A stretch of 64,000 bases of DNA, taken from positions 8,357-72,356 of the forward strand of contig JABIBQ010000080.1 of NCBI GenBank assembly GCA_018652685.1, given 5' to 3'. Every line of letters starts with the position of its first letter. The first letter of the stretch is position 1. Below are positions 4-16,178 of the stretch, piece after piece. A program made the translations under genes and the position numbers. The notes beneath the pieces are model-generated. The model was not told the origin of the DNA, did not search any database, and saw nothing but the letters and a program-made list of their open reading frames with translations. The DNA comes from Candidatus Bathyarchaeota archaeon (GTDB lineage: Archaea > Thermoproteota > Bathyarchaeia > TCS64).

Positions 4-828
4 ATGACAGTAGACCAGATCCCTATCGGCAGGTTCAGCGTCATAACAAGGCTAACCCAGAAAGCACTGAGATACTATGATACCAAGAAAATACTAGTCC
101 CAAAGGCAAAGGACGGCATCACCGGGTACAGGTACTACACCGGGAACCAGATACAGAGCGGAGTAAAGATCAAACTGCTCACGGGATTAGGCTTCAGCCT
201 AGACGAGATCAGGGAGTACTTGGACGCAGAAGAGTCGGGGAACAAGAGACTTGTCGAGAGGATTCTTGAGGAGAGGCGTATAGAGGCGGAGTCCCAGTTG
301 AACTCTCTCAGCAGGGTCGTGTCGTTGCTCAGGACAGACCAGACAGTGAAAAAAACGATGTCAGAACCAGTTATCAAGGAGACCCAGAAGCTTCGGGTCC
401 TGAGTAAGAGAGATTATGGGCGTTACGATGAGGCAATTGGACGCATGATCGGGGATATTATGAACGTGGTGATGTCACCCGAAAACCAGCGGAACTTTGT
501 TCGCATCACGGGTCCGTTTATGACTGTATACCACGGGGAGGAGGACGCGGAGAAAGGCGCGGATATAGAGGTGGCGGTACCTGTGACTGGTAAAGTCTAC
601 ATCGACGACCCGGAGGTTGAGATCCGAAACCTACAGCCAGCAAGGGTAGTGAGCACCGTGCATCAGGGGGCCTACGAGACAATCAGCCAAGCCTACGAGG
701 TAATATTCAGACACATAGCCGAGAAAGGATACGAGGTTGCGGGCCCAGTGATGGATATCTACCTAAATGACCCAAACCAGGTTGACCCGGACGATATCCT
801 GACGGAGATACAAGTCCAGATCAAGTAA
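4..828 (+). CDS. MerR-family transcriptional regulator with C-terminal GyrI-like effector-binding domain
   Basis: 274-aa ORF. N-terminal MerR HTH signature (IGRFSVITRLTQKALRYYDTKKIL...GYRYY), a helical linker, then a GyrI/BmrR-like C-terminal half. First gene of the + strand DinB/DinB/bshA/Trx string. Confidence 0.8.
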   Translation: MTVDQIPIGRFSVITRLTQKALRYYDTKKILVPKAKDGITGYRYYTGNQIQSGVKIKLLTGLGFSLDEIREYLDAEESGNKRLVERILEERRIEAESQLNSLSRVVSLLRTDQTVKKTMSEPVIKETQKLRVLSKRDYGRYDEAIGRMIGDIMNVVMSPENQRNFVRITGPFMTVYHGEEDAEKGADIEVAVPVTGKVYIDDPEVEIRNLQPARVVSTVHQGAYETISQAYEVIFRHIAEKGYEVAGPVMDIYLNDPNQVDPDDILTEIQVQIK

Positions 829-884
829 CTGTCCTCCATCGAACTCGTTTTAAGACTCCACCACCCCCCTTTTTACGGATTAAA

Positions 885-1343
885 ATGAACGAGAAAGCAT
901 CCATACTGGTCGAGCAGATAGAGTGGATCGTAAGCAGAGTTGAAAGCTCATGCAACGATCTTAGTGACGCGGAGTACAAATGGAAGCCAACTGAGGTTTC
1001 TACCAGCGTCCAGTGGCAGCTCATCCACATTAGCAGGATAATCAACGTTGCCCTACCCAGGCTCATCAAAGGGGTAACAGAGTACACTCCTGAAGGATGG
1101 GCGGAGGATTACCGCGACCAAGATTACCCCGTGGACAAGCTTCTATCAGATATCAAGAAGGGAAAGGAAGTTTCCATCAAGAAACTGAAGAAGGTATCCA
1201 ACGAGGCAATGGACGAGGAGATCCCACTCTGGGGAGGTACAAAACTCAGGAAAGAGGGTTTGTTCGCGTATATCGGTGAGATATACCACCACAGGGGACA
1301 GTTAACCTACATTAGGGGAACCTACAAGAGGCTAAACGAGTAG
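885..1343 (+). CDS. DinB-superfamily protein (DinB_2/YfiT-like, putative metal-dependent thiol transferase)
   Basis: 152-aa ORF. Conserved His positions typical of the DinB four-helix bundle (QLIHISRI ... IYHHRGQLTYIRG). Confidence 0.7.
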   Translation: MNEKASILVEQIEWIVSRVESSCNDLSDAEYKWKPTEVSTSVQWQLIHISRIINVALPRLIKGVTEYTPEGWAEDYRDQDYPVDKLLSDIKKGKEVSIKKLKKVSNEAMDEEIPLWGGTKLRKEGLFAYIGEIYHHRGQLTYIRGTYKRLNE

Positions 1344-1433
1344 CCCACCCACTTTTTTCAGGTTAAAAAACTTACCACAGGTTATAAATTAGTGAACTAG
1401 GGATTCAATAGTACCCAATTTTCGGTGATATAA

Positions 1434-1883
1434 ATGCCAAAAGTAGACAGAATAAAACACTTCGCAACTATGAGCCTAAACAGGCTCGATGGAACAACCA
1501 AGAACCTCACAGAGGATCAGCTAGATTGGAAGAGCTGCTCAGAAGCAAACACAATCAGGAACATCCTCGGCCACCTCATTGGAGAGTGGTACGGCTTCAT
1601 CCCAAAAATCGCTGCAGGCAGTAAAGACGCAGAGGTCGCGGGATACGCGGGAACAGAGGGCAAGAGCCTGGATGAGATCAAGGCAGACTATGAGGCAGGC
1701 AAAGCCAACCTCATGAAGACACTTGACGGAATAAGCGACGAGGACCTCGCCAAAGAGATGGAGTGGTTCATGGGCAAGCAGCCAACAGCCAGATATCTAA
1801 TGATGGGAGTATCCGAGATTCTCCACCACGAGGGCCAGATATCTGCAGTTCTAGGTGTCGAGAAGCGAATCAAGGGCGTTTAA
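1434..1883 (+). CDS. DinB-superfamily protein (second, divergent copy)
   Basis: 149-aa ORF. Motifs ILGHLIGEW ... ILHHEGQISAVLG. Lies in tandem with the first DinB gene. Confidence 0.7.
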   Translation: MPKVDRIKHFATMSLNRLDGTTKNLTEDQLDWKSCSEANTIRNILGHLIGEWYGFIPKIAAGSKDAEVAGYAGTEGKSLDEIKADYEAGKANLMKTLDGISDEDLAKEMEWFMGKQPTARYLMMGVSEILHHEGQISAVLGVEKRIKGV

Positions 1884-1927
1884 GCCCAACCTATTTTTAT
1901 TCAGCCATCAAGGTTAATTGAACCATC

Positions 1928-3034
1928 TTGAAGATTGGAGTCACATGTTACCCCACTGTGGGGGGAAGCGGTATTCTAGGCACAAGACTAGGTGTAGAGT
2001 TCGCCAAGAGAGGACATAGAACACATTTCATTACTCTGGAGACACCTTTTGCGCTCCAGGGAATAGACTATGACTTCGTTAAGGTGCACAGGGTCTCAGT
2101 GGTAGAGTACCCCCTGTTCAAGTACCCACCATACACTGTCGCTCTAGCAACAGAGATGTCGGATGTTACAGATAGTGCAGAACTTGACCTGCTCCACGTA
2201 CACTACAGCCTGCCACACGCAACGGCGGCACAGCTGGCTAGAGAGGTCACGGGCAAGCCATACGTGACCACCCTGCACGGCTCGGATGTCACTATACTGG
2301 GGAACGACCCAGCGTACGAGAGAGTGAATACAATGAGCGTGGAGGCGTCAGACGCCATTACGGCGGTATCCAAGTTCATGGCAGACGAAGCCCATAACAA
2401 CCTGGGCATCGAGAAGAAGATTCATGTCATACCCAACTTTGTGGACAACGAAAAATACCAACCTGCCCCCTGCGAGCTGATAGAGGCTAGGACGGAGGAG
2501 GCCATCACACTCATCCACGTCAGCAACTTCCGTCCGGTGAAGCGGGTGGAGGACATCGTGTACTCCATGTGCGTCATAACAAAGAAGGTACCCAACGCCA
2601 AGCTTATCATAGTTGGCGATGGACCAGACAGGCGCAGGGTTGAGAGACTAATAGACAAACTAGGGCTCAAAAAGAACATCAGGATGATGGGTTTCAGGAG
2701 CGATGTCCCTGATATCCTGAGGTGCGCAGACGCCCTAATTATGGCAAGTGAGACCGAAAGCGCCCCGCTTACGATACTGGAGGGCATGAGCAGCGGGTTA
2801 CCGATTATCGCCACGGATGTCGGAGGCATACCTGAGCAAGTGGAGGACGGGGTCAACGGTTTCCTTGTGCCAGTGAAAAGACCAGACGAAATCGCAGAGG
2901 CCGTGCTGAAGCTCAACGCCGATATCAATCTCCAGACGAAGATGGGTGAGAACTCACGGAAGACCGTGCTCGAAAGGTACACCGTTGACAGGGTACTTGA
3001 CCAGTACATGAAGATCTACGAGTCGGTCATCTAA
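1928..3034 (+). CDS. bshA: GT4 glycosyltransferase, BshA-type (N-acetyl-alpha-D-glucosaminyl L-malate synthase)
   Basis: 368 aa with a TTG start. It appears collinear with B. subtilis BshA as I recall that sequence: MKIGVTCYPTVGGSG, FKYPPY, HVHYSLPHA, TTLHGSDVTILG, IHVSNFRPVKRV, IVGDGPD, E..SAPLTILEGM, GGIPE. Confidence 0.85.
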   Translation: MKIGVTCYPTVGGSGILGTRLGVEFAKRGHRTHFITLETPFALQGIDYDFVKVHRVSVVEYPLFKYPPYTVALATEMSDVTDSAELDLLHVHYSLPHATAAQLAREVTGKPYVTTLHGSDVTILGNDPAYERVNTMSVEASDAITAVSKFMADEAHNNLGIEKKIHVIPNFVDNEKYQPAPCELIEARTEEAITLIHVSNFRPVKRVEDIVYSMCVITKKVPNAKLIIVGDGPDRRRVERLIDKLGLKKNIRMMGFRSDVPDILRCADALIMASETESAPLTILEGMSSGLPIIATDVGGIPEQVEDGVNGFLVPVKRPDEIAEAVLKLNADINLQTKMGENSRKTVLERYTVDRVLDQYMKIYESVI

Positions 3035-3072
3035 CCTAACTAATTATATTCACCCAAATACATGAAGGGGCT

Positions 3073-3660
3073 ATGTCTGATAAGCCAGCATACTACGATA
3101 AAAGAGCGGATTTCTGGAAAAAGTACTGGGATATGGCTCTAACATACGACGATTTCATGAAGATTGACACTGAGAACGCCCCCCGTTGGCACGATTTTAT
3201 GGCGAGAGTCCCGGACCTCAACGACGAGCAGAAGGCAAGACTGCAGGACTACAACAGGATCGTGAAAGTCCTGGTGTACGCTGGTGTCTGGTGCGGTGAC
3301 TGCGTAAGGCAGGGACCTTTATTCAAGAAAATCGCGGATTTCGTCGATGACGTCGAGATCAGGTTCATTGACAGGGACACCAGCGACGAGCTACAGGACG
3401 AGGTCAGGATCCTAGGAGCCACACGTGTACCAATAGTCGTGTTCCTCACAGAGGACTACTGGGAGGTAGGCAGGGAAGGAGACAGGCTCCTCCCGGTCTA
3501 CAGGGCGAAGGCTGCACGTGAGATAGGAAGGGGACAGTCATCAGGTGTGTTGAGCCCCAAGGCTATCGAGGACCAGCTTGACCTCTGGGTGGATATCTTT
3601 GAGAGGGCCATAATAATGACCAAACTCTCCCCGCCCCTGCGAAAGAGGCACAACGACTAG
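3073..3660 (+). CDS. Thioredoxin-fold protein with WCGDC active-site motif (Thioredoxin_9-like architecture)
   Basis: 195 aa. A helical N-terminal region precedes a Trx fold (VLVYAGVWCGDCVRQGP ... RVPIVVF). Located immediately downstream of bshA. Confidence 0.65.
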   Translation: MSDKPAYYDKRADFWKKYWDMALTYDDFMKIDTENAPRWHDFMARVPDLNDEQKARLQDYNRIVKVLVYAGVWCGDCVRQGPLFKKIADFVDDVEIRFIDRDTSDELQDEVRILGATRVPIVVFLTEDYWEVGREGDRLLPVYRAKAAREIGRGQSSGVLSPKAIEDQLDLWVDIFERAIIMTKLSPPLRKRHND

Positions 3661-5411
3661 GTCACGTTGATATAGTACATGGAGCTGTTCGGGGTGTACC
3701 TGTTGTACATCCTGAGATAGGCACCCATTACGTCCTTGGGACCAGTGGCGGCCGCGAGGTCTACCCACATCCAGTTCACTTCTTGTCCGAACTTCTCAGG
3801 GCTGAACCTACCGTAGCAGCATGACAGGTAGTGGTCTATGATCTGGGCCTCTCCCTGTTTCTTCTTCATGGCCTCGATTAGGGGCCTTCTGTCGCCGGGG
3901 TTCCTGAGCTGCTGCTTGATTTCAGCTACAGCGTCCTCATGGACCTTCAACTGCTCGATCAAACTCGTGTACGTTAAGGTAATACTCTCCTCGATACTTT
4001 CATGAGCCCTCCTGATTCCCTCCTCGTCGCCTGTGTTCCTTGCGACAACCCAGTCACTGAGGGTGTTGAAAACAGACTCGCTACTGATGATGGGGTATCC
4101 AGCCTTCTTTATGACGCTGGACTCCAACTCGTTCCAAGGAGTGTTGTAGAATGCCCTTGAGTACCTGAGGAACAGCGGGAATGGCAGTCCCACCCTCCTC
4201 ACGGCGGGGATGACCTCGGCATAATAGCTAGTCTCACCAGGGCCACCGATGTGGCCCACAATGGGGAAGACCGAGTCGGTAATGACCTGCCTGGAGTCCA
4301 CTCTCGGGGTGATCCAGTTAATGATCTCTGATACGTCTGGGTTCTCGGCGTTGACGCTGAAGCTGTACTCTTCCTCGCAGATGGGGCACTTGCCAAGGAG
4401 GTCAGCCGTAGATGAGCCCTCTTTCCTATGATATTTCAACTCGACCCTGATGCGACCGCACTTGGGGTTCATGCATTCAAGGAAGAACGGAACATAATCA
4501 GCGGTCCTCGCTCCGATCCCGGGCTTGTGGCCTGATGCGTCCACCATTGCTTGGGCCTCGTTGCTGGCCTCGATGAACCTCGTCCTAGTGGGCTCCCTGA
4601 GAAGAAGCTCAAAGCCGTTCTGGAACAGAGGCCGCGTCTCTGGCATACTGAACCAAAAGATGGGGAGACCGATATCTGCCTCAAGGTTGGTCAGCGAGCC
4701 GATGATCTTGGTGCTAAACGTGGATACGTTGTCGGTTGAGTAGTACGCGTTCCTGATGATTGAGTATATGTGGTCAAGGTTCTTCTGGACAAGGTCCCTC
4801 TTCTCAGAGGAAAGCTCCTTGAGAATCCCACGGTAGTTGCTGTCGATCTTGTCCATGGTTTTCCTGAACCAGCTCTCACCCGGCAGCTTGACCTCGTATA
4901 TGGAGAGGTTGTTCTGGGTCGGCTGGATCGGGTAGTTCATGTGCAGCCCCTTGGAGCTCGGACTCGGCAGCCTCATGTTGGTTAGCTCGGGCTGGACCCC
5001 ATCGTAGTCCGCGACATAGTAGAGGGGGACGATTTTCTCGTCCATTCCAGCTAAAGATACCGCATACGCTATTTTGTTGAGGACAAGGCTAGGTCCGCCC
5101 ATGAAGTTTGGCTGCTGGCCGGCCTCGACGACGCCGTTGTGCATCCCGTCGATAGCCTCCACGGTCTTTCCCGTCAAAAGCCCCATGCGCCTCATGTTGT
5201 TCTTCATGTGGGCCTTGAGGGACTCCAGCTCGTCGATTGTTTCACCGTACTCACTCCGGACCTTCGGCATCAGGTCGGCGGCCTCCCCCATGGTGTGAGA
5301 GATGTGCCCCCAGAGCTCAGTGGCTAACCCCGATGTTTTCCGTTCAATTACATGGTTTGAGTATATGTTATGCGCCGCTGGCCTGTTGTCCTGTTCGCTC
5401 AAAATATGCAC
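3657..5411 (-). CDS. bshC: BshC-like protein (bacillithiol biosynthesis cysteine-adding enzyme family) with a Cys4 insertion
   Basis: 584 aa with a GTG start. Matches remembered BshC blocks: AGQQPNFMGGPSLVLNKI, PLYYVADYDGV (compare FWVAGEDHD) and HIGGPGETSYYAEV (compare IAGPGEINYW). Same strand as bshB. Confidence 0.75.
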   Translation of the reverse strand: MHILSEQDNRPAAHNIYSNHVIERKTSGLATELWGHISHTMGEAADLMPKVRSEYGETIDELESLKAHMKNNMRRMGLLTGKTVEAIDGMHNGVVEAGQQPNFMGGPSLVLNKIAYAVSLAGMDEKIVPLYYVADYDGVQPELTNMRLPSPSSKGLHMNYPIQPTQNNLSIYEVKLPGESWFRKTMDKIDSNYRGILKELSSEKRDLVQKNLDHIYSIIRNAYYSTDNVSTFSTKIIGSLTNLEADIGLPIFWFSMPETRPLFQNGFELLLREPTRTRFIEASNEAQAMVDASGHKPGIGARTADYVPFFLECMNPKCGRIRVELKYHRKEGSSTADLLGKCPICEEEYSFSVNAENPDVSEIINWITPRVDSRQVITDSVFPIVGHIGGPGETSYYAEVIPAVRRVGLPFPLFLRYSRAFYNTPWNELESSVIKKAGYPIISSESVFNTLSDWVVARNTGDEEGIRRAHESIEESITLTYTSLIEQLKVHEDAVAEIKQQLRNPGDRRPLIEAMKKKQGEAQIIDHYLSCCYGRFSPEKFGQEVNWMWVDLAAATGPKDVMGAYLRMYNRYTPNSSMYYINVT

Positions 5412-5459
5412 CTAGACATTATGGGGTAAACTCGGCAGGGGATTATTAAAACAATTAGC

Positions 5460-6404
5460 CTAGAGCCTCAACAGCTTAGCGGCGTTGTCGTGGAAAATCA
5501 TCCTGATCTCCTCCTCCCTGAGGCCTAACTCGTAGCAGGTCTTCAGCTGCTCCCTCAAGTATTCAACAGAGAAACCCCTGGGGAAGTAGCTACTATCAGT
5601 GCCGAACAGAAGCCTCTCGGGACCCATGGTCTCCATGGCCTTCCTGAAAAGCTTCTTCAGGTCCAGGTCGTAGGGCATCCACCTCATCCACTGGTTTGAG
5701 CCCGATGTGTCGACATAGACGTTGGGGCACTGCCAGCAGAGCTGCAACAGCTCCCTCCAGTAGCAGGCGCCGAAGTGAGGGACTATTAGTTTCAAGGTCG
5801 GAAAATCGCTGAGGACCTTCCAGAACGTGAGGGGGTTCAGATTTCTCAAATCGTATGCGGGTCCGCCGCCTCCCCCCAGGACGCCGAAGTGGGCTAGCAC
5901 CGGGATCTGTAGCTTCTCTGCCACCTCCCAGACGGGGTAAGCCTCCTTACTATCAATGGGCTTCGACTGGCCTGATGCGATGAGCTTGTACCCCTTGAGG
6001 CCCAGCTGCGTGACCGCCCTTTCTAACTCCTCGGCAGCATCCTCCCCGAACAGTGGATGATGTGCAAACCCGGTGAACCGCTCGGGGTGCATCTTGATTA
6101 TCTCGGCTAGATTGTCGTTGCCCCCACCCATCATGAAGTTGACTCGTTCAAGCCCTTTGGCATCCATATCATCAACCCAACGCTGAGCCTGCTCGTGGTC
6201 ATTGTGGATGACGCCATCCTCCGGGGGCTCAAAGGCCCACATGCGCCTCCACTTGTTCCTGTACATGCGCGAGTTCTCAAGGATGATGTCGGCCCTCTCC
6301 TCGCCGTACCTGTCAACCAGTCGTTTCCTTCTGCCGCGACCTCCTGGCCTCTGGACGGGGAAGTGACTGTGAAAATCGATTACTTTGAGTCCGTAGAGGT
6401 TCAT
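5460..6404 (-). CDS. Amidohydro_2-family metal-dependent hydrolase (TIM barrel)
   Basis: 314 aa. Motifs VIDFHSHFP near the N-terminus, then HFG and HFGACYW, and a downstream Asp (FGTDSSYFP). Sits between bshB and bshC with 48-nt gaps on each side. Confidence 0.7.
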   Translation of the reverse strand: MNLYGLKVIDFHSHFPVQRPGGRGRRKRLVDRYGEERADIILENSRMYRNKWRRMWAFEPPEDGVIHNDHEQAQRWVDDMDAKGLERVNFMMGGGNDNLAEIIKMHPERFTGFAHHPLFGEDAAEELERAVTQLGLKGYKLIASGQSKPIDSKEAYPVWEVAEKLQIPVLAHFGVLGGGGGPAYDLRNLNPLTFWKVLSDFPTLKLIVPHFGACYWRELLQLCWQCPNVYVDTSGSNQWMRWMPYDLDLKKLFRKAMETMGPERLLFGTDSSYFPRGFSVEYLREQLKTCYELGLREEEIRMIFHDNAAKLLRL

Positions 6405-6452
6405 GAATACACCTTTCGGAATGTAAAGGCACGAGGCTAGTTATGAATATCG

Positions 6453-7145
6453 TTAAACCAGGAGGGCTGTCGCCTTCTCCAAGTAGAATGGCCCGTCCCT
6501 TGGCAGGGACTCCTCGATGAACGCCTCCGCCAGCTCCACGTCGCACTGCACACCTCTCAGTTCCGCCTTCTTCCTGTTGACCCTCGGGTAGTAGCCCCAC
6601 GGGAACTTGGCGAGCTGGGTGGAATACTGGTTGATAGCCTTTTCCTTTGCATCGTACGAGTTGGTTACATCCACTAGAATGCTAGGGCTCGGGATCAGAG
6701 TGTTGACCTCCATCAGGAGCAGCCGCTCAACTAACCAAGCATCCTCGTACATTGTCGTATGGGCTGCCCACTCTATTGCCTCCTTGACAACCCCGTAGCA
6801 AGATTTGTGTTCCCTGTGATAATCGAATGGCAAGTGAGTGATGATAGTCCCTGGCCTGAAGTCATCGATGTAATCGGCTAACTCCCTGATCAGCTCGGGA
6901 CTTACCTGGATGTCGTCCCTCTCAAGAATATCAGCATCAACATCCAGCGACTGGACGGCGTTGAAGAACTCGTCTCTCCTGTTCCTGGGGTTGCAGGTAA
7001 GGCATAGTACCCGCACCTCCTTGCCTGCGCTGGCATGCTTCGCCAGAGTCCCTCCGCAACCGAAGGTCTCGTCGTCCGGGTGGGAAACGATGGCAAGTAA
7101 ACCGCCTGTCATGGATGAAGAGACGGCGGATACCGTATAAAACAT
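6453..7145 (-). CDS. bshB: PIG-L/LmbE-family N-acetylglucosaminyl deacetylase, BshB-like
   Basis: 230 aa. PIG-L signature LLAIVSHPDDETFGCGGTLAKH plus a downstream HxxH-type region (DYHREHKS). Clustered with bshA and bshC. Confidence 0.75.
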   Translation of the reverse strand: MFYTVSAVSSSMTGGLLAIVSHPDDETFGCGGTLAKHASAGKEVRVLCLTCNPRNRRDEFFNAVQSLDVDADILERDDIQVSPELIRELADYIDDFRPGTIITHLPFDYHREHKSCYGVVKEAIEWAAHTTMYEDAWLVERLLLMEVNTLIPSPSILVDVTNSYDAKEKAINQYSTQLAKFPWGYYPRVNRKKAELRGVQCDVELAEAFIEESLPRDGPFYLEKATALLV

Positions 7146-7315: not shown

Positions 7316-7436
7316 CATTAATATATATAATAACATGTCGAATTAAACAACATAGTTATTTTGAAGCATCAAAAATAGAGCGGTATTCTATATGACTGAT
7401 AACTTATGTATGTGCATATTCCTTTTATTACTAAAA
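7316..7436 (+). promoter_or_regulatory. AT-rich promoter region upstream of the pilin gene
   Basis: TATA-like runs ATTAATATATATAATAA (about 7317-7333) and TTTTATTA (about 7423-7430, some 40 nt before ATG 7470). GGAGG lies at 7453-7457. Confidence 0.3.
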
Positions 7437-7469
7437 TCGAGCAAGATGATAAGGAGGCAAAGAGTAAGA

Positions 7470-7934
7470 ATGAATTATCAAGAAAGAAAAGCTGTGAGCC
7501 CAGTGATAGCCACAGTAATACTTGTAGCAGTTGCGATCACCGTCTCGGTAGGAGTTTCTTACTGGATGGGCGGAATTAGCAGCCAGTACACCCAGTTCGA
7601 GAAAATTGAGGTCCAAACAGGATTCGCGACCGCCGTTGCCGGTGGTTGGGATGTCACTATGACCGTCAAGAACAGTGGTTCAGCTGACGCAACAATTACA
7701 CACGTATTCGTCAACGATGTTCCTGTAACCAATCTTGCGGCATCAGCGGTCGTCGCAGGAGAAACAGGGGCAGATGTTCCTGCAACCGGACTTGGTCTAA
7801 CTGCAGGAGAGGCTGGAACGGTAATGGTCTACATCTCATCAAGCTATGGATCGTTGTCAGCGGGTACGACTGTAAACATAAAGCTACACAGCGCAGGCGG
7901 AATGGATTACATCAAGCTAATCAAGCTACCCTAA
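7470..7934 (+). CDS. Archaeal type IV pilin-like protein (class III signal peptide, DUF1628-type N-terminus)
   Basis: The ORF track starts at 7392. ATG 7470 is preceded by GGAGG (7453-7457) and gives MNYQERK/AVSPVIATVILVAVAITV, a typical prepilin N-terminus. The C-terminus is beta-rich. Confidence 0.75.
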   Translation: MNYQERKAVSPVIATVILVAVAITVSVGVSYWMGGISSQYTQFEKIEVQTGFATAVAGGWDVTMTVKNSGSADATITHVFVNDVPVTNLAASAVVAGETGADVPATGLGLTAGEAGTVMVYISSSYGSLSAGTTVNIKLHSAGGMDYIKLIKLP

Positions 7935-8185
7935 TCCAAATTCCTCCCCATTTTTAAAATTTCAATATTTTCTTGGAGGTTTGACCACTGAAGCTCGTAG
8001 AATGGCTAAAAGAAAAAATCAGCACAGCACCAGAGGAAGAAATAGAAGGCGTCATTGTACGAGAAATCAAACCGGAGTACAGGATAATCGATGAGTATGC
8101 GGTCATCGAGCCTCATTCATGTGTAAAAATAGTTTCATCCCCAGAGCTTGGGGAAGGAAAATATTACTTCGTTGAGGAGGCCCCT

Positions 8186-9733
8186 ATGAATAAGGAGCAG
8201 GACGACACATACCAGAAAATGGTCAACATACTCAGCAAGGAGTTCACCTCACCCAAGGGGGAGCACATCGACCCAAAGGAGTATGTTTACGAGCAGGCTG
8301 AGATTATCGCCGAGAAGTATCACAGGACACTTGGGAAGTTTACTATCGAGGAATGGGACAGGGTCTTCTACTATGTAGTGAGAGACCTGACGGGGTACGG
8401 CCCACTCCAGACCATCATGGATGATCCCAATATCGAGGACATCAGCTGTAACGGCATCGACATGCCCCTATATATCTGGCACAGAAACCATGAGAGCATC
8501 CCATCAAACATCATTTTCAAGAGCACCCAGTTACTCAACGATTTTCTAGTCAAGATGGCCCACAAGTCGGGCAAGCACATCAGTAGCGCCCAGCCGGTTC
8601 TCGACGCCATGCTGCCTGAAAAGCACAGGCTGGCGGCGACTTTTATGAACGAGATCAGTATGAAGGGGAGCACCTTCTGTATCAGGAAGTTCCGGGAGGA
8701 GCCCTTCAGCATCGTTGACCTCATGAACGTGGGGACAATAAGCGCACGAATAGCCGCCTACTTCTGGCTAATACTTGAGTACAAGAAGAGCTTCATGATC
8801 GTCGGAGGGACTGGCGCAGGCAAGACCAGCATGCTCAACGCCCTCTTGGGACTCATGAGCCAGAACGACAAGATCGTCACCGTCGAGGAAGTTCCGGAGC
8901 TCAACCCTCCGGCGACAAACTGGACCCAACTCAACAGCAGGGAGAGCTTCAATTTCGGCGACGGCCCTAGTGGAAGCATCAGCCTCTTCGATTTAATCAA
9001 AGTGAGTCTCAGGTACAGGCCAGACTACGTCATAGTTGGTGAGGTCAGGGGAGAGGAGGCGTACGTGCTGTTCCAGGCCCTGGCAACGGGCCACGGTGGA
9101 CTATGTACAATGCACGCGGATAGCATCGACAGGGTGGTTAAACGGCTTACATCGCCACCCATGAACGTCAGCGAGGTGTACATCCCACTGATGAACGTGG
9201 CGCTCTACATCCAGAGGGTAGAATTACCAGGCAACAAGGACGGCAACTCCTTCGGCAGGAGGATTCGCAGCGTCTCTGAGATAGCCGAGTTCGAGGACTA
9301 TAATGAGGTATCCAGGTGGGACCCGAGAAAGGACAAGTTCATCACAATGTTCGAGGACAGCTTCATCATCCAGCAGATTAGCATAACAAGCGGACTATCG
9401 ATATCCCAGCTCATCGAGGAACTTGACACTAGGGAACAATACTTGGAAACAATAGTTGAAAGCGGAATTACGATTCAGTCAGAGGTAGCAGACAGGATCT
9501 CTGGATACCAGAACATCCGTAAATCAATGTTGAACGGGGAGACACCAAAGATCGAAGACCTGTGGGAGGTGGGGCAGTTCAACCCGTTCAGGCTACCTGA
9601 CATCAACGACCTGTTTGAATTCATCCTCAAAGAGGAAAAAAGGAAGGAAATAGAGGAACGTCAACCTGAAAGGGGCAACAACTGGGATGAAATCCAAACG
9701 ATGCTGAACCAACTTCGGGAGGACGCCCAGTAA
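8186..9733 (+). CDS. Type IV pilus/archaellum-type secretion ATPase (FlaI/ArlI-PilB/VirB11 superfamily)
   Basis: Walker A (MIVGGTGAGKTSMLNAL), Asp box/Walker B (PDYVIVGEVRGEEA) and His box (TGHGGLCTMHAD). The reading frame stays open upstream to 7985, so the true start is probably earlier (see the finding at 7985-8185). Confidence 0.9.
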   Translation: MNKEQDDTYQKMVNILSKEFTSPKGEHIDPKEYVYEQAEIIAEKYHRTLGKFTIEEWDRVFYYVVRDLTGYGPLQTIMDDPNIEDISCNGIDMPLYIWHRNHESIPSNIIFKSTQLLNDFLVKMAHKSGKHISSAQPVLDAMLPEKHRLAATFMNEISMKGSTFCIRKFREEPFSIVDLMNVGTISARIAAYFWLILEYKKSFMIVGGTGAGKTSMLNALLGLMSQNDKIVTVEEVPELNPPATNWTQLNSRESFNFGDGPSGSISLFDLIKVSLRYRPDYVIVGEVRGEEAYVLFQALATGHGGLCTMHADSIDRVVKRLTSPPMNVSEVYIPLMNVALYIQRVELPGNKDGNSFGRRIRSVSEIAEFEDYNEVSRWDPRKDKFITMFEDSFIIQQISITSGLSISQLIEELDTREQYLETIVESGITIQSEVADRISGYQNIRKSMLNGETPKIEDLWEVGQFNPFRLPDINDLFEFILKEEKRKEIEERQPERGNNWDEIQTMLNQLREDAQ

Positions 9734-11517
9734 TGGCCCAATTAGATTTCGGCACGGTCCTGAGGGACTACTGCTACGCGTATTTTGGCTGGGCAGGCAA
9801 GGGACTGACCTCGGTTTTTAGGGATATTGAGAAAGACCTTGACGCGGCCAGCATGAGCATCCACCCAGAGGTTTACTTTAGCCTTGTGGGCGTGGTCGCC
9901 ATAATATCAGGAGTTCTGCCCATGGTCGCTTTCGGGTTTATCTCCCTCGGGTTATTCCGATTACCAGCAAGTCTAGGCATATCCCCCATGATTCTATTAC
10001 CAGTCAGTCTTGGACTCCCGCTGGTAATAATCATCGGCAGTACAATCTTTCCCAAGACAGTCTCAAGCGACAAGATGGCCAGCCTTCAGATTGAGATCCC
10101 ATACGCATCAATGTACATCAGCGTCATGGTCAGCGGCGGTCTTAGCCCATTCGAGAGCTTCATCAGGATGAGGGAGATGGACTTGCTGCCAAGCATGAAG
10201 GCTGAAGTGAATAGACTCGAGACCCTGGTCATGACCTCAGGAGCCGACCCCATCACCGCGATGGAACTAGCAGCTAAAACAGTCAATATCAAGGAATACA
10301 AGGAACTTTTGCTGGGATACGCCTCAAGCGTGAGAACCGGGGGGGACACTCTTCACTACCTGTTCAACCAGACAAAAAACATGTTCAGGAGTCTATCCAT
10401 TCAAGTAAGGGCAAAGGGAGAGGCAGCCGCCATGCTCATGGAGGCATACACCATCATCGGGATACTGGGCGTCCTCGGCCTCTTCCTAGTGTTCGTTGTG
10501 GGAATGAGCCTACCCACGGCAGGGGTCAGCATCAGTCCTGAACAGTTCTTCCTGTTCAGCTTCGTGGTTATGCCCGGAATGTCATTCTTGTTCCTGTTCG
10601 CAGGAGACATGGTGCAGTTCAACTATCCGATCAGCAACTGGAAACCATACTACGTGTTCTTTGGTTTTCTTCCGTTCGGAGGACTTTTAGCAACTCAAAT
10701 AGTGCTCCCGTTCTTTAACGAGTCATTCTTGCTTGTCCCCGCGTTGATGAACTCGATTATTTGGGTGAGAACCTCGCTTGGGTTCGCTGAGGGAACCGAG
10801 GCGGCTATCGGAGTTACATTCACTCTTATTTTCGTGGCTATTCCAGGTTGGGTAGCCGATTATTATACCTCGGGCAGGGATGGAAACCTGCAGAACGGTA
10901 TCACCCTATTCCTCAGGGACCTGGTTGAGGTAAGAAAAAGCGGGATGAGCCCAGAGAAAAGCATCGCGGCCTTGTCCGGAAGGAACTACAAGGGGTTCGG
11001 CAGATATCTTAAGGACATCAGCACCAAGATCAACTGGGGCTACCCGCTACGCCAGATATACAAGGAGTTCGCGGCCAGTGCCAACAACTGGCTAGCCCTC
11101 GTCAATATCTACCTGCTCCTGGACACCATCGAGGTGGGAGGGGGGACAGTGGACAGCATCGAGAGCCTCGCCGAGTTCAGCGAATCATCGAAGCAGCTGG
11201 AGGAAGAGAAGAAAGCGGTTCTGATGCCGCTGGTGATAGTTCCATACATCGGTGCAGCGCTCCTGACTGGCACGACGGTCATGTTTCTGGGTTTCTTCGG
11301 AGGCTCAAACCTAGGCGTCAGCATTCAGCAGGTGATGCTTTACAGGGTCTTGCTGACTCCGCTGTCGATTCACTGTTTCACTTTGGGGCTTGTCACGGGT
11401 AAGATAGTGTCTGGGAGAGTTTCGGCAGGTTTCAAGCACGCAGTGATACTCAGCCTTGTCGCACTCGGGGGCATTTGGCTCGTCTCTAGCATGGATATGG
11501 GAGGTGGCTTGATTTAG
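9733..11517 (+). CDS. Polytopic membrane platform protein (FlaJ/ArlJ-TadC, T2SS-F domain family)
   Basis: 594 aa with many TM helices and two cytoplasmic helical T2SSF-like regions. Its ATG overlaps the ATPase stop by 1 nt (TAATG). Confidence 0.85.
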   Translation: MAQLDFGTVLRDYCYAYFGWAGKGLTSVFRDIEKDLDAASMSIHPEVYFSLVGVVAIISGVLPMVAFGFISLGLFRLPASLGISPMILLPVSLGLPLVIIIGSTIFPKTVSSDKMASLQIEIPYASMYISVMVSGGLSPFESFIRMREMDLLPSMKAEVNRLETLVMTSGADPITAMELAAKTVNIKEYKELLLGYASSVRTGGDTLHYLFNQTKNMFRSLSIQVRAKGEAAAMLMEAYTIIGILGVLGLFLVFVVGMSLPTAGVSISPEQFFLFSFVVMPGMSFLFLFAGDMVQFNYPISNWKPYYVFFGFLPFGGLLATQIVLPFFNESFLLVPALMNSIIWVRTSLGFAEGTEAAIGVTFTLIFVAIPGWVADYYTSGRDGNLQNGITLFLRDLVEVRKSGMSPEKSIAALSGRNYKGFGRYLKDISTKINWGYPLRQIYKEFAASANNWLALVNIYLLLDTIEVGGGTVDSIESLAEFSESSKQLEEEKKAVLMPLVIVPYIGAALLTGTTVMFLGFFGGSNLGVSIQQVMLYRVLLTPLSIHCFTLGLVTGKIVSGRVSAGFKHAVILSLVALGGIWLVSSMDMGGGLI

Positions 11518-11948
11518 TGAGTAGAAAAGCACTTTCCCCAGTAATTTCATCATTGATCCTTTCAGCCGCAGTTATAGTCATAGGGGGGGCTGTCTGGTCC
11601 TACTCCGTTGGGGCAGCCACGTCAATAGCTGACGGTTACGTGAATGATACTCTTAATCTTTCAGATGAAGTCACGGAGAGGTTCATGGTAGAACATGTGG
11701 ATATAGACGCCGGACTTGATACTCTATCCGTCTGGGTCTATAATTACTGCTCTCAGAGCATTACAGTTGACACATACATCAAGGACGGCAACATCGTCAT
11801 CGGCTCAACACTTGGGTCAATTATAGAAAAAGGGGACACCTCAATGATCACGATCGAGATCATCCCAAGATCGTCGAATGACGAGGTGTCAATAAAAATA
11901 CACAGCAGGAGGCAGAACGACACGTATGAAACATTCTATGTCCCGTAA
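11517..11948 (+). CDS. Pilin-like protein with class III signal peptide
   Basis: GTG start overlapping the preceding TAG by 1 nt. N-terminus SRK/ALSPVISSLILSAAVIVIGG. Confidence 0.7.
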   Translation: MSRKALSPVISSLILSAAVIVIGGAVWSYSVGAATSIADGYVNDTLNLSDEVTERFMVEHVDIDAGLDTLSVWVYNYCSQSITVDTYIKDGNIVIGSTLGSIIEKGDTSMITIEIIPRSSNDEVSIKIHSRRQNDTYETFYVP

Positions 11949-12675
11949 GAAAAGAAGAGGGATCGCATCGATCCTTGGCACTCTCATATTCATTGGCATC
12001 GTATTCAGCGCATTTGTGCCCATGACCCTGGTCATGAAGCAGGCAGATAATGTATATGAGAGAAAAATCCACGAGGCGACTATCAGTGACATCGATAAAG
12101 GAACAGAGGACGCTATGGTCTATGCATACGGGGAGACGGGTAGTACGGAACTTTCTGTCTTCATAACAAACAAAGGAGTTAACGAACTGACCATCGTCCG
12201 AGTCTGGTTGAACAACAACTCCACCGAAGTATCTGAAACAATAGTCCCGAAAGCTTCCACTGAAATGGGACCTTTCGATGTAACAGATGCAGAGTCCCCC
12301 CTCAAGGTAAAAGTGACGACAGAAAATGGAAACATATTCGAGTGCGATCTTGGTTCGGTGATGTACTCAGAGGTAAATGGTTGGTATACTCCATCATTCG
12401 CAATCAGCGTTATGATAATGAGTGACTGGGGCCAGTATGAGATTATCGTGGAAGACTCCGGGTCTAACGAAGTCGGATATTACAAGTCATCCGGAAACGA
12501 ACACGATGATATATCCAAGACATTCCTTGTGGACGATACCCCCGATACATATGATGTTGAGGTATTGAAGAAAATCGGGGGTGGGTGGAACAATCTAATC
12601 GGACCAGGATATACGGTGAACGTGCCGTCAGCAGCAGGCACTCCCGTCGTAATAGTGGTAACGGATGGAACATAA
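11938..12675 (+). CDS. Pilin-like/minor pilin candidate with class III signal peptide
   Basis: MSRKKRRG/IASILGTLIFIGIVFSAF starts at ATG 11938. An alternative in-frame ATG lies at 11926. Confidence 0.65.
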   Translation: MSRKKRRGIASILGTLIFIGIVFSAFVPMTLVMKQADNVYERKIHEATISDIDKGTEDAMVYAYGETGSTELSVFITNKGVNELTIVRVWLNNNSTEVSETIVPKASTEMGPFDVTDAESPLKVKVTTENGNIFECDLGSVMYSEVNGWYTPSFAISVMIMSDWGQYEIIVEDSGSNEVGYYKSSGNEHDDISKTFLVDDTPDTYDVEVLKKIGGGWNNLIGPGYTVNVPSAAGTPVVIVVTDGT

Positions 12676-14738
12676 TGACTAACAATAAAACAATACTAAT
12701 CGGAACCGCTCTAGCGTTACTACTGATACTATCAAACGGAACCCAGACGGCTCACGCGGAAAGGATTACAATAGAGAAACCTTTCGAGCCAGTAATCATC
12801 GAAGATGGAACAATTCCTCTGAACACAAGATACAGGGCAGACCCATTAGAGATACTCTGCAAGCTAGAGGAGGGAAGAAAATACCACATATACCTCGTTG
12901 GTGAATGGACCACAAAAGTCAATGAATCAAGTGCGATGGATCGTTTAACAGATTATGACATCGAAGTATTTGACTCACAGAACAATTTAATTTCCAGTCA
13001 TACTGAGTCAGCTGGTTTCCCTGAACAAGTTTCCAATGATAAGAACCACCAATATTTCGAGCCGCCAACCACGGATAAGTACCGTTTTGTGATATACAAT
13101 GATCCAGAGGACAGCAGAGGGACCCAAGAGGCAGTATTCATGATCATCGAGCATCTAGAAATGAACAAGAGATATGAGTTGTACCTTGAGGGAAGACCGT
13201 CTCCGTCTGAACCGTATCCCCCTGATTACGTTTGGGCCTATGAATTTTCGACCCCAAATGAGAATTTCCAACTTCATGTTGAGGTTCCCGACCCTGATCC
13301 GAAGAAAAAGGATCACGGTCTTGACATGTATGAGATCAGGTTGTTCCCCATGGCGAATCCGTCTGCAGAGGTTGGATACTACATATCAGGAGTTGGGGTG
13401 CCCGAGGGTAATTTGCTTCAAGGAGGAGTAGAGGGACAATACGGTTTGTACAATACATCGATCTCAGGGAATAGCTTCCCTGATCTGAGGGCCAGTTGCG
13501 AGTACGCAGGAGAGGATATGGACGTGGTATTTGGAAAACCCCAGCACAACGAGACCGAGCTGGTCCTAGAGACAAGAGAGGTATTTTACTACATAGCCAT
13601 GCTTGCCGAGTACTACCACGGAACAATATCATTTTACATCAAGACAGATTACAGGCAGATCAACGTGACCATAATCGAGTCACCAGAGGTCGGGGTCACA
13701 GGAGAGGACCATCGTGTGGTCGCTGAACTTCAAAGCCCAGGGGTAATAACCAGGGCATGGCTCAACTATACAACCGACGGCTGGAGGACTGAGGAAAAGA
13801 TCCAGCTCACAGAGGAATTCGGCTTGTACGAAGGATGGCTGCCGCGGTTTGAGTTGCTCGACAACGTACAGTACAGGATTTATGTCGAGGATGAGATAGA
13901 CAACTCGGGGATGAGTGAGTTAGGGTTCATTGTACTTGACCCTGTCAACCTACGTATTGGAGCAAAACGGCTCGATGTGAACGGGGGAGAATCCATAGAG
14001 ATAGGCGGGAAAGCTGTGGAATCCAGCGAGATCAATCTGAGAATCCAATCCAATGATTTCGAGGAGAACATAAACATAAACGTTGATGATGAGAAAAATT
14101 GGTCGTACATGTTCACCCCCCAAAAGGAGGGCAACTATAACGCCAAGGTGTTCTTTGACGGTGATGACACTCACGATAAGGCTGAGAGCAAAGAGATCAC
14201 ACTCTCGATGGAGAAACAGACCCCAACAATCAACTATGCAATCAACCCCAGGCAGGTTAAGAGGACGAGGGAGTTTGAGGTCTCAGGCACCATCTCTCCA
14301 CACATATCGGGAATATCTGTGAAACTACTATGCATCACACAGACAACAAGCTATGAGTTGGAGACAATCACGATGAGCGACGGTTCGTTCAGCTTTTTTG
14401 TAGTACCAGAAGAAAGCGGAACATGGCAGGTTCTGCCTCAGATATCTGAGTCAAATTTCCAGGAGGGAACCCAGGGCGAGATTAAGGTCTTTGATGTCAT
14501 CGAACTGACGATGAAGGAAAAGGTAACAGCTGCCATACTTCCATTCACGGTATTGCCCATGATCCTGGCTCCCGTTGGACTCGCGGTTGCGGGGTTAGGT
14601 TTGGGCGAGATGAGGACGGGTTTTGTCAGGGGATTGTTTGGCAAAGAATCAGGGAAAGAAGACCCAGATGAGAAAGATGGGGATAAAAAAACCGTCCCTA
14701 AGGGAGCGGTCAGTTACCGCCGCCGAAGCAGCAGATAG
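12675..14738 (+). CDS. Large secreted, C-terminally membrane-anchored surface protein (function unknown)
   Basis: ATG 12675 overlaps the preceding TAA by 1 nt. Signal-peptide-like MTNNKTILIGTALALLLILSNGTQTAHA, a beta-rich body of about 600 aa, a C-terminal TM (AAILPFTVLPMILAPVGLAVAGLGLG) and a charged tail. Confidence 0.6.
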   Translation: MTNNKTILIGTALALLLILSNGTQTAHAERITIEKPFEPVIIEDGTIPLNTRYRADPLEILCKLEEGRKYHIYLVGEWTTKVNESSAMDRLTDYDIEVFDSQNNLISSHTESAGFPEQVSNDKNHQYFEPPTTDKYRFVIYNDPEDSRGTQEAVFMIIEHLEMNKRYELYLEGRPSPSEPYPPDYVWAYEFSTPNENFQLHVEVPDPDPKKKDHGLDMYEIRLFPMANPSAEVGYYISGVGVPEGNLLQGGVEGQYGLYNTSISGNSFPDLRASCEYAGEDMDVVFGKPQHNETELVLETREVFYYIAMLAEYYHGTISFYIKTDYRQINVTIIESPEVGVTGEDHRVVAELQSPGVITRAWLNYTTDGWRTEEKIQLTEEFGLYEGWLPRFELLDNVQYRIYVEDEIDNSGMSELGFIVLDPVNLRIGAKRLDVNGGESIEIGGKAVESSEINLRIQSNDFEENININVDDEKNWSYMFTPQKEGNYNAKVFFDGDDTHDKAESKEITLSMEKQTPTINYAINPRQVKRTREFEVSGTISPHISGISVKLLCITQTTSYELETITMSDGSFSFFVVPEESGTWQVLPQISESNFQEGTQGEIKVFDVIELTMKEKVTAAILPFTVLPMILAPVGLAVAGLGLGEMRTGFVRGLFGKESGKEDPDEKDGDKKTVPKGAVSYRRRSSR

Positions 14739-14759: not shown

Positions 14760-16058
14760 TCACTCGACTAGTTTTTTCATGAAATCGCTGTAATCGTCCC
14801 GCTTGATGGTGGGCACAAATCCGTCGATTACTTTCTTGGCGGCAGAGGCATCATTGATGAGCAGGTCTACCACTGTAATCGCCAGTGCCTTGGCTGGCAC
14901 GATGTACTGGCGAATGCTGTCGGTTATCTTGAAGTCCCTGCTATGGCCTGGACCCTCACACCCTCCCATGCCGATGCTTGTTGTGGGCATAATGCAGCTA
15001 TAATCACCCATGTCTGTGCTGCCCGTGCTGTGACCCCTGTGCTTGAGCTCAGCAGCCCCGACGTATTCGGTGCATGCCCCTATGAGCACCTTCTCAAGCT
15101 CGTCATTTCGAGTGTAAGGCATATACCCCGGGTGGTCAAATATCTCCACCTCGGCACCCACGGACATCGCTCCTGCCCTGAGGGCACGATTAACCTTGAC
15201 GTTTGCGTCTTTGATGGCGTCAACCGTCTTTCCCCTGACGTAGCTCTCCATTCGCACATCTGCTGGGACGTTGTTGACGATCTCTCCTCCCTTTGTAATT
15301 ATGGGGTGGACCCTGATGGTGTCCTGGTCACGGAAAGTCTCCCTGTTGGCGTGGATACCCATGAGTCCCATCATGGCGGCGTTCAATGCGTTGATTCCCT
15401 TGTGTGGGCTCCCGCCGGCGTGAGCCTCCCTACCGATATAGCCAACAAGCTTGCCGACGAAGCCGTTGTTGCTGCCACCTACACCGATGAGCTCCATCTG
15501 GTCCATGGCGCTATGGCTTCCGATGGAGATATCAATATCTTTCATGGCCCCCACCCTGATGAACTCCTGCTTGCCACCGAAGAACTCCAGCTTGCCCTCC
15601 TCCCTGAGGCGGTTCCTGTAATCTATCTCGATGTACTCCTCGGCAGGCACGGCAACCATGACAACCTCCCCTGCGAGGTGATCCTTTACGAGATCTAGTC
15701 CGTATCCCGCGCCAAGCATGGCAGCCATCTGGCTGTGGTGTCCGCATGCATGGACGTTTCCTGACGCCGTGTGTGCCTCAGGGTGGACCGGGATGTGGAG
15801 GGCATCGAGCTCACCGACAACCCCCACGGAAGGCCGTGAGCCATCTCCCTTCAGGTACGCCTTGCTCCCAGTAATGGCAATATCCTTCTCGTACCTCCAG
15901 CCCATCGCCTCGTACTTTGCCTCAGTTAGCTCCGCCGTCTTGAACTCCTTGAACCCAAGCTCGGGGTACTTCCATATCGCGTTGGCGTACTCGATTATCT
16001 CGTCAGCCCTGCGGTCGATCTCTGCTAAAACTTTCTTCTTGATCGCTGCCTTGTCCAT
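14760..16058 (-). CDS. M20-family amidohydrolase/peptidase (AbgB/aminoacylase-like)
   Basis: 432 aa. Metal-ligand motif HACGHH, GELDAL, and an M20 dimerisation-domain layout. Confidence 0.8.
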   Translation of the reverse strand: MDKAAIKKKVLAEIDRRADEIIEYANAIWKYPELGFKEFKTAELTEAKYEAMGWRYEKDIAITGSKAYLKGDGSRPSVGVVGELDALHIPVHPEAHTASGNVHACGHHSQMAAMLGAGYGLDLVKDHLAGEVVMVAVPAEEYIEIDYRNRLREEGKLEFFGGKQEFIRVGAMKDIDISIGSHSAMDQMELIGVGGSNNGFVGKLVGYIGREAHAGGSPHKGINALNAAMMGLMGIHANRETFRDQDTIRVHPIITKGGEIVNNVPADVRMESYVRGKTVDAIKDANVKVNRALRAGAMSVGAEVEIFDHPGYMPYTRNDELEKVLIGACTEYVGAAELKHRGHSTGSTDMGDYSCIMPTTSIGMGGCEGPGHSRDFKITDSIRQYIVPAKALAITVVDLLINDASAAKKVIDGFVPTIKRDDYSDFMKKLVE

Positions 16059-16178
16059 ATCTATCGTAATATGAACGGGTCAGCGCGGATTTAAGACGAA
16101 TGTTGGGAACCATTTCAGGACAGCAACATGGAAAAAATCAGAGGAGAGGGCTTGGATGATCCATTACACCTGGGCAGC

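Follow-up and report, generated by a model that had tools for sequence, protein, structure and literature searches.

The described systems closest to the locus considered here are the bacillithiol pathway of Bacillota, Deinococcus and Chlorobi (Bacillus subtilis, Staphylococcus aureus and C. tepidum), which is built on BshA, BshB and BshC as its enzymes, and the mycothiol pathway of Actinomycetota, built on MshA, MshB, MshC and MshD. The bacillithiol S-transferases of the Bacillus type belong to the DinB/YfiT-type proteins, and to our knowledge the bacillithiol pathway has been shown experimentally only in bacteria. The locus itself lies at positions 4-7145 of a 64,000-nucleotide stretch of DNA from Candidatus Bathyarchaeota archaeon (contig JABIBQ010000080.1, positions 8,357 to 72,356), hereafter the window, and comprises eight open reading frames (ORFs) that are likely to make and use a bacillithiol-type low-molecular-weight thiol, Cys-hexosamine-malate.

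The basic pathway is already known, and archaeal bsh genes have been annotated and briefly mentioned in the literature. In a 2020 review BshA and BshC had 39 archaeal InterPro matches apiece, most of them from the Asgard group (PMC7278568), and a survey of RefSeq in 2025 listed no archaeon with a complete pathway (PMC12719100). GenBank automatic annotation already gives the name BshC, in metagenome-assembled genomes (MAGs) of Bathyarchaeota, to both protein types described below. The first-pass annotation of this DNA missed these names and the review's archaeal matches, as well as the canonical bsh operons of other Bathyarchaeota; its remark that no experimental work on such an archaeal system was known agrees with the literature searched, where bacillithiol paired with either Bathyarchaeota or Asgard led to nothing relevant beyond the 2020 review (PMC7278568). 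What appears to be new is a divergent cluster type that stands beside the canonical one in the same archaeal class, together with its zinc-ribbon BshC shared with Asgard archaea, the ESAP loop of its BshA and its recurrent Amidohydro_2 gene.

Proposed pathway

In the pathway that we propose, the BshA-type GT4 glycosyltransferase would transfer N-acetylhexosamine (HexNAc) from a uridine diphosphate (UDP) sugar onto L-malate, the PIG-L zinc deacetylase would take off the acetyl group, and a BshC-like enzyme of 584 amino acids, predicted to have a Cys4 zinc ribbon and a coiled-coil hairpin in addition to a Rossmann core like that of class I aminoacyl-tRNA synthetases, would add cysteine to the free amine. 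Two DinB-family proteins would conjugate electrophiles to the thiol, a thioredoxin-fold protein with the motif WCGDC would handle mixed disulfides, and a MerR/GyrI-like protein would tie expression to a small-molecule signal; the Amidohydro_2 enzyme may take part in the BshC reaction or work on what that reaction yields. A bacillithiol-type cluster with detoxification and redox partners was also what the first-pass annotation had suggested, and this idea has held: the GT4 protein is a BshA equivalog, the PIG-L protein matches BshB best, the 584-residue protein has a predicted BshC fold and the DinB genes are co-conserved. The reading builds on assigned families and folds, conserved catalytic residues and co-conserved genes, from which we infer all enzymatic activities and the sugar, glucosamine (GlcN) or galactosamine (GalN). 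The eight ORFs claimed earlier all lie where they had been placed, their families are upheld by Pfam and NCBIfam, and the motifs quoted for them were re-read from the DNA as GQQPNFMGGP, YYVADYDG, GGPGETSY, HPDD(E), HREH and WCGDC.

The three core enzymes

The GT4 protein is classed as a BshA equivalog because it exceeds the cut-off of the NCBIfam model thiol_BshA (TIGR03999; 408.8 bits against 273.7, the next model scoring 160.8) and because solved BshA proteins are far closer to it than other GT4 enzymes are: five BshA entries of the Protein Data Bank (PDB) match at E values of 4e-90 to 6e-80, compared with 6e-21 for the next GT4 and 3e-14 for MshA. Its score against the MshA model is 69.9 bits (cut-off 462.5), and the earlier statement that it aligns with BshA is borne out by the ranking of model scores, on which both the BshA-versus-MshA and the BshB-versus-MshB assignments are based. 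For catalysis and substrate contact S. aureus BshA uses H118, T120, N171, K209, E280-S-F-G283 and E288, and the backbone NH of the glycine in its ESFG loop, which binds N-acetylglucosamine (GlcNAc), hydrogen-bonds the C3/C4 hydroxyls of the sugar (PMC10361700). In the window protein the conserved residues H117, N170, K205, E277 and E285 align with S. aureus H118, N171, K209, E280 and E288; S119 replaces T120 (H117-G-S119, positions 2276-2284, giving HGS for HGT), a change that all bathyarchaeal BshA orthologues of this type share, and E277-S-A-P280 (2756-2767) replaces the canonical ESFG. All 35 of the 35 bathyarchaeal BshA proteins of this cluster type read ES[AST]P or ENAP, with the phenylalanine of ESFG absent and proline for its glycine.

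The PIG-L protein scores 74.2 bits against Pfam PF02585 (gathering score 28.2), and its best family and PDB matches are BshB proteins, led by 6P2T (5.5e-10) and followed by TT1542 and BC1534, with MshB at about 4e-3. The motifs HPDD (7071-7082) and HREH (6807-6818) are present, and the zinc-binding and catalytic residues H22, D24, D25, H110 and H113, which align with H12, D14, D15 and the HxxH motif of BC1534, are conserved among 34 orthologues. The ORF as annotated starts 11 codons before Met12 (extra stretch 7112-7145; Met12 codon 7110-7112), and since all homologue alignments begin at about residue 15, Met12 is probably the true start.

The 584-residue protein scores 51.1 bits against Pfam PF10079, Rossmann-like_BshC (gathering score 27), and its sole NCBIfam family match is thiol_BshC (TIGR03998). 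Searched as a single sequence against the PDB it finds only B. subtilis BshC, 4WBD, and that weakly (E 0.005); a profile of 14 family sequences finds the same entry at E 4.4e-11. An AlphaFold2 model computed from a 30-sequence alignment has a predicted local distance difference test (pLDDT) score of 92.7 and a predicted template-modelling (pTM) score of 0.93, and its top Foldseek match is again 4WBD (E 4.9e-19, TM scores of 0.67/0.72, 588 columns), the second being a class I lysyl-tRNA synthetase. The BshC motif blocks reported for this ORF are indeed there, with GQQ..GGP at 5091-5120 and GGPGE.SY at 4224-4247, and in the predicted model the fold matches BshC over the full length. Between the two blocks lies a Cys4 zinc ribbon (C313, C318, C342 and C345; 4377-4475), placed by the model in a beta-rich subdomain. 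Its four cysteines are invariant across the BshC-like sequences of Bathyarchaeia and Heimdallarchaeota, and B. subtilis BshC has no cysteine at all in the aligned segment.

A family-profile search of 1.84 billion representatives returned 1145 relatives at E <= 1e-3, and an alignment of the full-length ones among them defines three tiers. Tier 1, with both the BshC motifs and Cys4, is an archaeal clade with members named Heimdallarchaeota and Promethearchaeota. Tier 2 is an unannotated family that keeps Cys4, reads GGxGGY for GGPGE and has no significant Pfam or NCBIfam BshC match, with a weak PF10079 signal, and tier 3 is canonical BshC, which is without Cys4 and whose representatives score 373-536 bits on TIGR03998.

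Co-conservation in Bathyarchaeia

To assess co-conservation, the proteins encoded in the window were compared by tblastn with 45 related genome loci, 41 of them titled Bathyarchaeota or Bathyarchaeia, two Heimdallarchaeota and one an unclassified archaeon. The nearest homologues of the 584-residue protein (88-90% identity) come from MAGs of Candidatus Bathyarchaeota/Bathyarchaeia, and the window holds a gene for transcription factor B (62096-63052), in keeping with the archaeal character first ascribed to it. The core order, bshB > (Amidohydro_2 >) bshC-like > < bshA < DinB2 < DinB1, is kept in 30 of 43 independent bathyarchaeal MAG loci, down to a BshC identity of 46%, and in the remaining 13 the contig stops short. 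The three core genes and the two DinB genes are therefore co-conserved, and the clustering of the BshA, PIG-L and BshC-like genes is not due to chance. Accessory genes are nested by BshC identity: the core stands alone at 46-49%, Amidohydro_2 is added at 48-54%, and the Thioredoxin_9 gene occurs only at 51-89%, that is, in the sub-clade nearest the window.

Canonical operons in other Bathyarchaeota

A canonical form of the cluster, here called type I, was reached through homologues of the Amidohydro_2 protein. Locus L052 carries a bshC-bshB-bshA operon flanked by an Amidohydro_2 gene (62% identity) and a DinB gene (43%), and its products pass all three NCBIfam cut-offs, with 436.1 bits for BshC, 239.1 for BshB1 and 468.2 for BshA. 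Relatives at 57-81% identity to the L052 BshC are named Candidatus Bathyarchaeota (one Bathyarchaeia) and lie on contigs of up to 1.9 Mb; the operon was also found in CP070765.1, CP070749.1 and one contig of the Joint Genome Institute (JGI), and in CP070835.1 it sits among the archaeal housekeeping genes for DNA polymerase B, S12/S7 and EF-1 alpha. These operons contradict the RefSeq-based statement that no archaeon has a complete pathway (PMC12719100).

The core enzymes of the window are 24-36% identical to those of type I. Just upstream of their canonical bshC, L052 and L053 encode orthologues of the window's Amidohydro_2 protein (62-64% identity) and L055 a fragment of 77 amino acids, and the presence of orthologous Amidohydro_2 and DinB genes at the type I operon suggests that one accessory module serves both core sets. 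Among the matches listed, no large contig holds both cluster types, which weakly hints at mutual exclusion. Bathyarchaeia, which are abundant in sediment and soil, thus carry complete bsh-type clusters in two forms, and a major archaeal lineage would on this evidence probably use a sugar-cysteine thiol buffer.

Two further observations concern type I loci. In L057 a cysteinyl-tRNA synthetase gene (cysS; 7445-8869) follows bshA by about 100 nucleotides in the order bshC-bshB-bshA-cysS, a suggestive placement in view of the activated cysteine donor of BshC. Certain canonical clusters of complete Bathyarchaeota genomes have the look of partial decay (L055:3656-3889; L056:3591-3824 and 6225-6480), their called genes including the 77-residue Amidohydro_2 fragment, a 78-residue DinB fragment and a gene of 85 codons at the position of bshA.

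Cluster layout, accessory genes and neighbourhood

The eight ORFs form two convergent transcription units, in which the three minus-strand genes face the five plus-strand genes and the facing stop codons share 4 nucleotides; intergenic gaps measure 38-90 nucleotides (Table 1). Scanning all of the window against Rfam gave no RNA family.

Table 1. Genes of the window cluster and type I loci of other Bathyarchaeota. Positions are those of the window unless a locus is named.
Feature	Position	Strand	Basis
MerR/GyrI-like regulator	4-828	+	ORF list; Pfam MerR_1 and GyrI-like
DinB-superfamily protein 1 (DinB1), putative thiol S-transferase	885-1343	+	Pfam DinB_2, DinB
DinB-superfamily protein 2 (DinB2), putative thiol S-transferase	1434-1883	+	Pfam DinB_2, MST
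BshA-type GT4 glycosyltransferase, putative HexNAc-malate synthase	1928-3034	+	NCBIfam TIGR03999
Thioredoxin-fold WCGDC protein, putative thiol-disulfide oxidoreductase	3073-3660	+	Pfam Thioredoxin_9 PF14595
Archaeal-type BshC-like protein, 584 amino acids, putative cysteine-adding enzyme	3657-5411	-	PF10079, fold of 4WBD
Amidohydro_2, TIM-barrel metal-dependent hydrolase/decarboxylase superfamily	5460-6404	-	Pfam PF04909
PIG-L/LmbE-family zinc deacetylase, BshB-like, putative HexNAc-malate deacetylase	6453-7145	-	Pfam PIG-L PF02585
Type I locus L052	L052:6001-10961		
Type I locus L053 (CP070835.1)	L053:6846-11403		
Type I locus L055			
Type I locus L056			
Type I locus L057			

Both DinB proteins are consistent with thiol S-transferases like BstA/YfiT of Bacillus and are regarded as putative members of that group; each exceeds the gathering score of Pfam DinB_2. 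DinB1 scores 35.6 bits against Pfam DinB_2, 30.7 against DinB and 24.1 against MST (gathering score 27), with weak matches to mycothiol S-transferases (NCBIfam MST_Rv0443, 28.5 bits with a cut-off of 170; PDB 8FX9/8F5V at E about 1e-3), and conservation among 24 orthologues reaches at least 95% for its H48, H135 and H136; a TATA-like element, TTTTAAGA, lies about 30 nucleotides upstream of its ATG. DinB2 scores 47.7 bits against DinB_2 and 27.8 against MST (gathering score 27), and among 27 orthologues its H47, H131, H132 and C35 show a conservation of 95% or more. In most loci that are long enough the DinB2 gene directly adjoins bshA, and DinB1 is also kept near it.

The WCGDC protein (motif at 3289-3303) scores 69.1 bits against PF14595, its W73, C74, D76 and C77 being conserved among 17 orthologues, and against NCBIfam it matches only generic thioredoxin models, below their cut-offs; a literature search on Thioredoxin_9/PF14595 found nothing relevant. 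The Amidohydro_2 protein (PF04909, 153 bits) has an intact HxH/H/H/D metal site, formed by the conserved residues H12-x-H14, H172, H210 and D270, and is more conserved among related loci than the Bsh proteins are. Although not in every genome, both cluster types of Bathyarchaeia have its gene immediately upstream of bshC, which suggests a link to the BshC step. PDB searches with this protein, the thioredoxin-fold protein and both DinB proteins gave only weak or uncharacterised matches, the best for Amidohydro_2 being the uncharacterised BB4693 (3IRS). No TrxR/YpdA-like (thioredoxin reductase-like) enzyme was found among the ten other window ORFs of 270-390 codons that were scanned.

The MerR/GyrI protein matches MerR_1 over residues 8-75 (46.4 bits) and GyrI-like over residues 121-274 (68.8 bits), both above the gathering score. 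This BmrR-like architecture makes it a probable ligand-responsive regulator of the neighbourhood, with a presumed regulatory link to the cluster. Its gene adjoins the cluster in the closest relatives only (in L003 and L039) and lies 1-1.5 kb away in L011, L017 and L037. Across from it in L048, a relative at 78% identity, the stretch 15486-19876, divergent from the MerR/GyrI gene, holds two stand-alone GyrI-like genes and genes for a class A beta-lactamase-like protein, a tetratricopeptide repeat protein and an Fpg/Nei DNA glycosylase; this region corresponds to DNA beyond the left edge of the window, which would thus cut through a larger xenobiotic and damage-response neighbourhood.

On its other side the cluster adjoins a type IV pilus or archaellum-like locus with class III signal-peptide pilins (7392-14738), which includes a FlaI-like gene (8186-9733) and a FlaJ-like gene (9733-11517). 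Farther into the window are a fusion of ThiF and rhodanese domains resembling the sulfur-carrier activators MoeB/Uba4 (47880-49040) and a gene for a protein of the serine beta-lactamase family (32823-33917).

Alternative explanations

Several points weigh against the production of a bacillithiol-type thiol. The 584-residue and PIG-L proteins fall short of the equivalog models, an outcome that the first-pass annotation had itself counted against its reading in the case of the 584-residue ORF: the former reaches 47.1 bits against TIGR03998 (cut-off 265.8) and the latter 72.8 bits against BshB1 (TIGR04001; cut-off 182.5) and 54.4 against BshB2 (TIGR04000; cut-off 195.25). Judged by sequence and, for the larger protein, by its predicted structure, they are a divergent structural homologue of BshC and a true but divergent relative of BshB, and neither is an equivalog. 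The coiled-coil family CC_BshC (Pfam PF24850) has no match in the 584-residue protein at E <= 0.01; in the AlphaFold model long paired helices are predicted at residues 463-501 and 509-533, and the Foldseek alignment reaches the C-terminus. One complete genome with the window's cluster type has no PIG-L gene adjacent to it, and there is no disulfide reductase in the cluster, so that calling the module self-contained was an overstatement. Bacillithiol has not been detected in any archaeon (PMC7278568). Moreover, in vitro reconstitution of the BshC reaction has never been achieved, the reaction may depend on a partner or substrate that is missing, and 'cysteine ligase' is for this reason a deduced activity even for the reference enzyme (PMC5790435).

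This uncertain chemistry (PMC5790435) and the failed BshC model leave room for the reading that the cluster makes a non-thiol glycoconjugate, an amino-sugar for a glycan or natural product, with the BshC-like protein as a general amino-sugar amide ligase for a substrate other than cysteine. The nearest sister family, tier 2, has one member on the JGI contig Ga0556603_000004 (L046:2894-7755) beside genes for a PIG-L protein, a luciferase-like monooxygenase, a DegT aminotransferase, a GT2 glycosyltransferase and an epimerase; it may be a separate amino-sugar ligase system, and the setting of this member among sugar-modification genes means that relatives of the window protein may make non-thiol products. 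However, the window protein keeps the BshC-specific motifs GQQ..GGP and GGPGE..Y, both of which tier 2 lacks, it is accompanied by a BshA equivalog, by two DinB proteins of the thiol-transferase type and by a thioredoxin-fold protein with CxxC rather than by glycan-assembly genes, and in other Bathyarchaeota the canonical bshCBA has the same accessory genes beside it, which together make this reading improbable. A sugar variant of the thiol, Cys-GalN-malate (the C4 epimer) or another, made by a BshA that uses UDP-N-acetylgalactosamine (UDP-GalNAc) and by an adapted deacetylase and ligase, is possible, although we do not expect it. The glycine that the proline replaces in all 35 proteins is the one that contacts the sugar in S. 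aureus BshA, and proline at this position marks galacto-donors in three other GT4 enzymes: PglA (8DVZ, 'EGFP', donor UDP-GalNAc), E. coli WaaB ('EGFP', donor UDP-galactose) and the N. meningitidis W polymerase, in which P310G switches the donor from UDP-galactose to UDP-glucose (PMC10361700, citing Claus 2009). The gluco-donor enzymes, solved BshA structures and WaaG ('EAAG', donor UDP-glucose), carry glycine there, and ESFG and HGT are kept in the BshA proteins of Heimdallarchaeota, Bacillus and type I Bathyarchaeota. By analogy the window BshA may use UDP-GalNAc as its donor and yield a galactosamine analogue of bacillithiol, a lead and not a proof: the protein scores above the BshA equivalog cut-off all the same, the proline rule consists of three analogies and not of BshA biochemistry, and Heimdallarchaeota pair the archaeal BshC type with an ESFG BshA, so that BshC divergence and the sugar loop do not go hand in hand. 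Doubtful is the fuller proposal of an undescribed thiol, in which the galactosamine analogue, or one otherwise altered in its sugar, would arise through the ESAP BshA, the divergent deacetylase and the zinc-ribbon BshC, with Amidohydro_2 as the missing BshC partner or processor of its co-substrate; if true, this partner could explain why BshC activity has not been reconstituted in vitro.

A bacillithiol-type thiol with an unaltered or altered sugar is a question of function, and a separate one is that of origin, since the first-pass annotation had considered that the genes may have been acquired from bacteria. MerR/GyrI and DinB are mostly bacterial families, the window BshA is slightly nearer to that of B. 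anthracis (about 40% identity, an approximate value from a hand-transcribed sequence) than to that of Heimdallarchaeota (35%), and two related contigs, L010 (DATKWN010000061.1) and L014 (DATKWY010000193.1), are binned as the bacteria Krumholzibacteriaceae and Desulfaltia. These contigs are short, however, and show the bathyarchaeal gene order at 53-54% identity, so that mis-binning is their simplest and probable explanation. The guanine-plus-cytosine content of the cluster (49-55%) is unremarkable within the range of the window, the BshC-like gene is of the archaeal clade shared with Asgard archaea, the flanking pilus genes (T2SSE, T2SSF) are syntenic with the cluster in L048 and shared by closer relatives, and in the complete genome CP070640.1 the cluster is set among ribosomal-protein genes. 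A recently acquired bacterial genomic island is for these reasons highly improbable. The synteny across Bathyarchaeia, the ribosomal-protein neighbours and the nesting of accessory genes by relatedness argue instead for a chromosomal cluster that has been vertically inherited over a long time.

Comparison with known systems

The mycothiol system of Actinomycetota follows the same logic, from a GT4 enzyme through a PIG-L protein to the ligation of cysteine, and it too has DinB-family S-transferases; the window cluster, in contrast, is without an MshC-type paralogue of cysteinyl-tRNA synthetase and without an MshD acetyltransferase. A mycothiol pathway was rejected as an identity for the cluster on this ground and because the MshA score given above and that of the PIG-L protein against MshB (37.8 bits, cut-off 224.35) lie far under the Bsh scores.

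With the bacterial bacillithiol system the cluster shares the three enzyme families, their logical order, a BshA at equivalog level and putative S-transferases of the DinB/YfiT type. It differs in its archaeal host, in a BshB and a BshC far below the equivalog cut-offs, the latter with a Cys4 ribbon, in the ESAP loop where the canonical BshA has ESFG, and in the clustering of its core genes, since B. subtilis has bshC in a separate operon (PMC4360819). Its partners are Thioredoxin_9 and Amidohydro_2; the NCBIfam models for the bacilliredoxins BrxA, BrxB and BrxC have no match among the cluster proteins, and no Bdr/YpdA-type flavoprotein reductase gene lies within the cluster. The first-pass view that the partner proteins differ from the Bacillus ones holds by half, since the DinB proteins are of the Bacillus type.

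Asgard archaea (Heimdallarchaeota and Promethearchaeota) have BshC-like proteins of the same archaeal clade, with 28-29% identity and with Cys4 and the BshC motifs in common, and two Heimdallarchaeota loci have, no more than a few kb from this tier 1 gene, a GT4 gene whose product passes the BshA cut-off (322 and 287 bits). The Asgard BshA keeps ESFG, the coiled-coil region of the Asgard BshC-like protein is 32 residues shorter, and in place of adjacent PIG-L, DinB, Amidohydro_2 and Thioredoxin_9 genes these loci have a TrxR-like flavoprotein. The latter, a 310-residue protein encoded divergently next to the BshC-like gene (L044:6881-7819; L045:6972-7904), scores 161 and 144 bits against TIGR01292 (cut-off 343) and could be the thiol's disulfide reductase.

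Nearest in setting are the type I clusters (L052, L053/CP070835.1, L055 and L057), which belong to the same archaeal class and share the pathway logic and the Amidohydro_2 and DinB partners. Type I passes the three cut-offs, has an ESFG and HGT BshA and a BshC without Cys4, and carries its genes in one direction; the window type differs in each of these respects. The variant offers handles on the unsolved last step of bacillithiol synthesis, in its zinc-ribbon BshC clade and its Amidohydro_2 neighbour, and a third in the donor-specificity loop, which predicts a different sugar, all three being read from sequence comparison with the systems described here.

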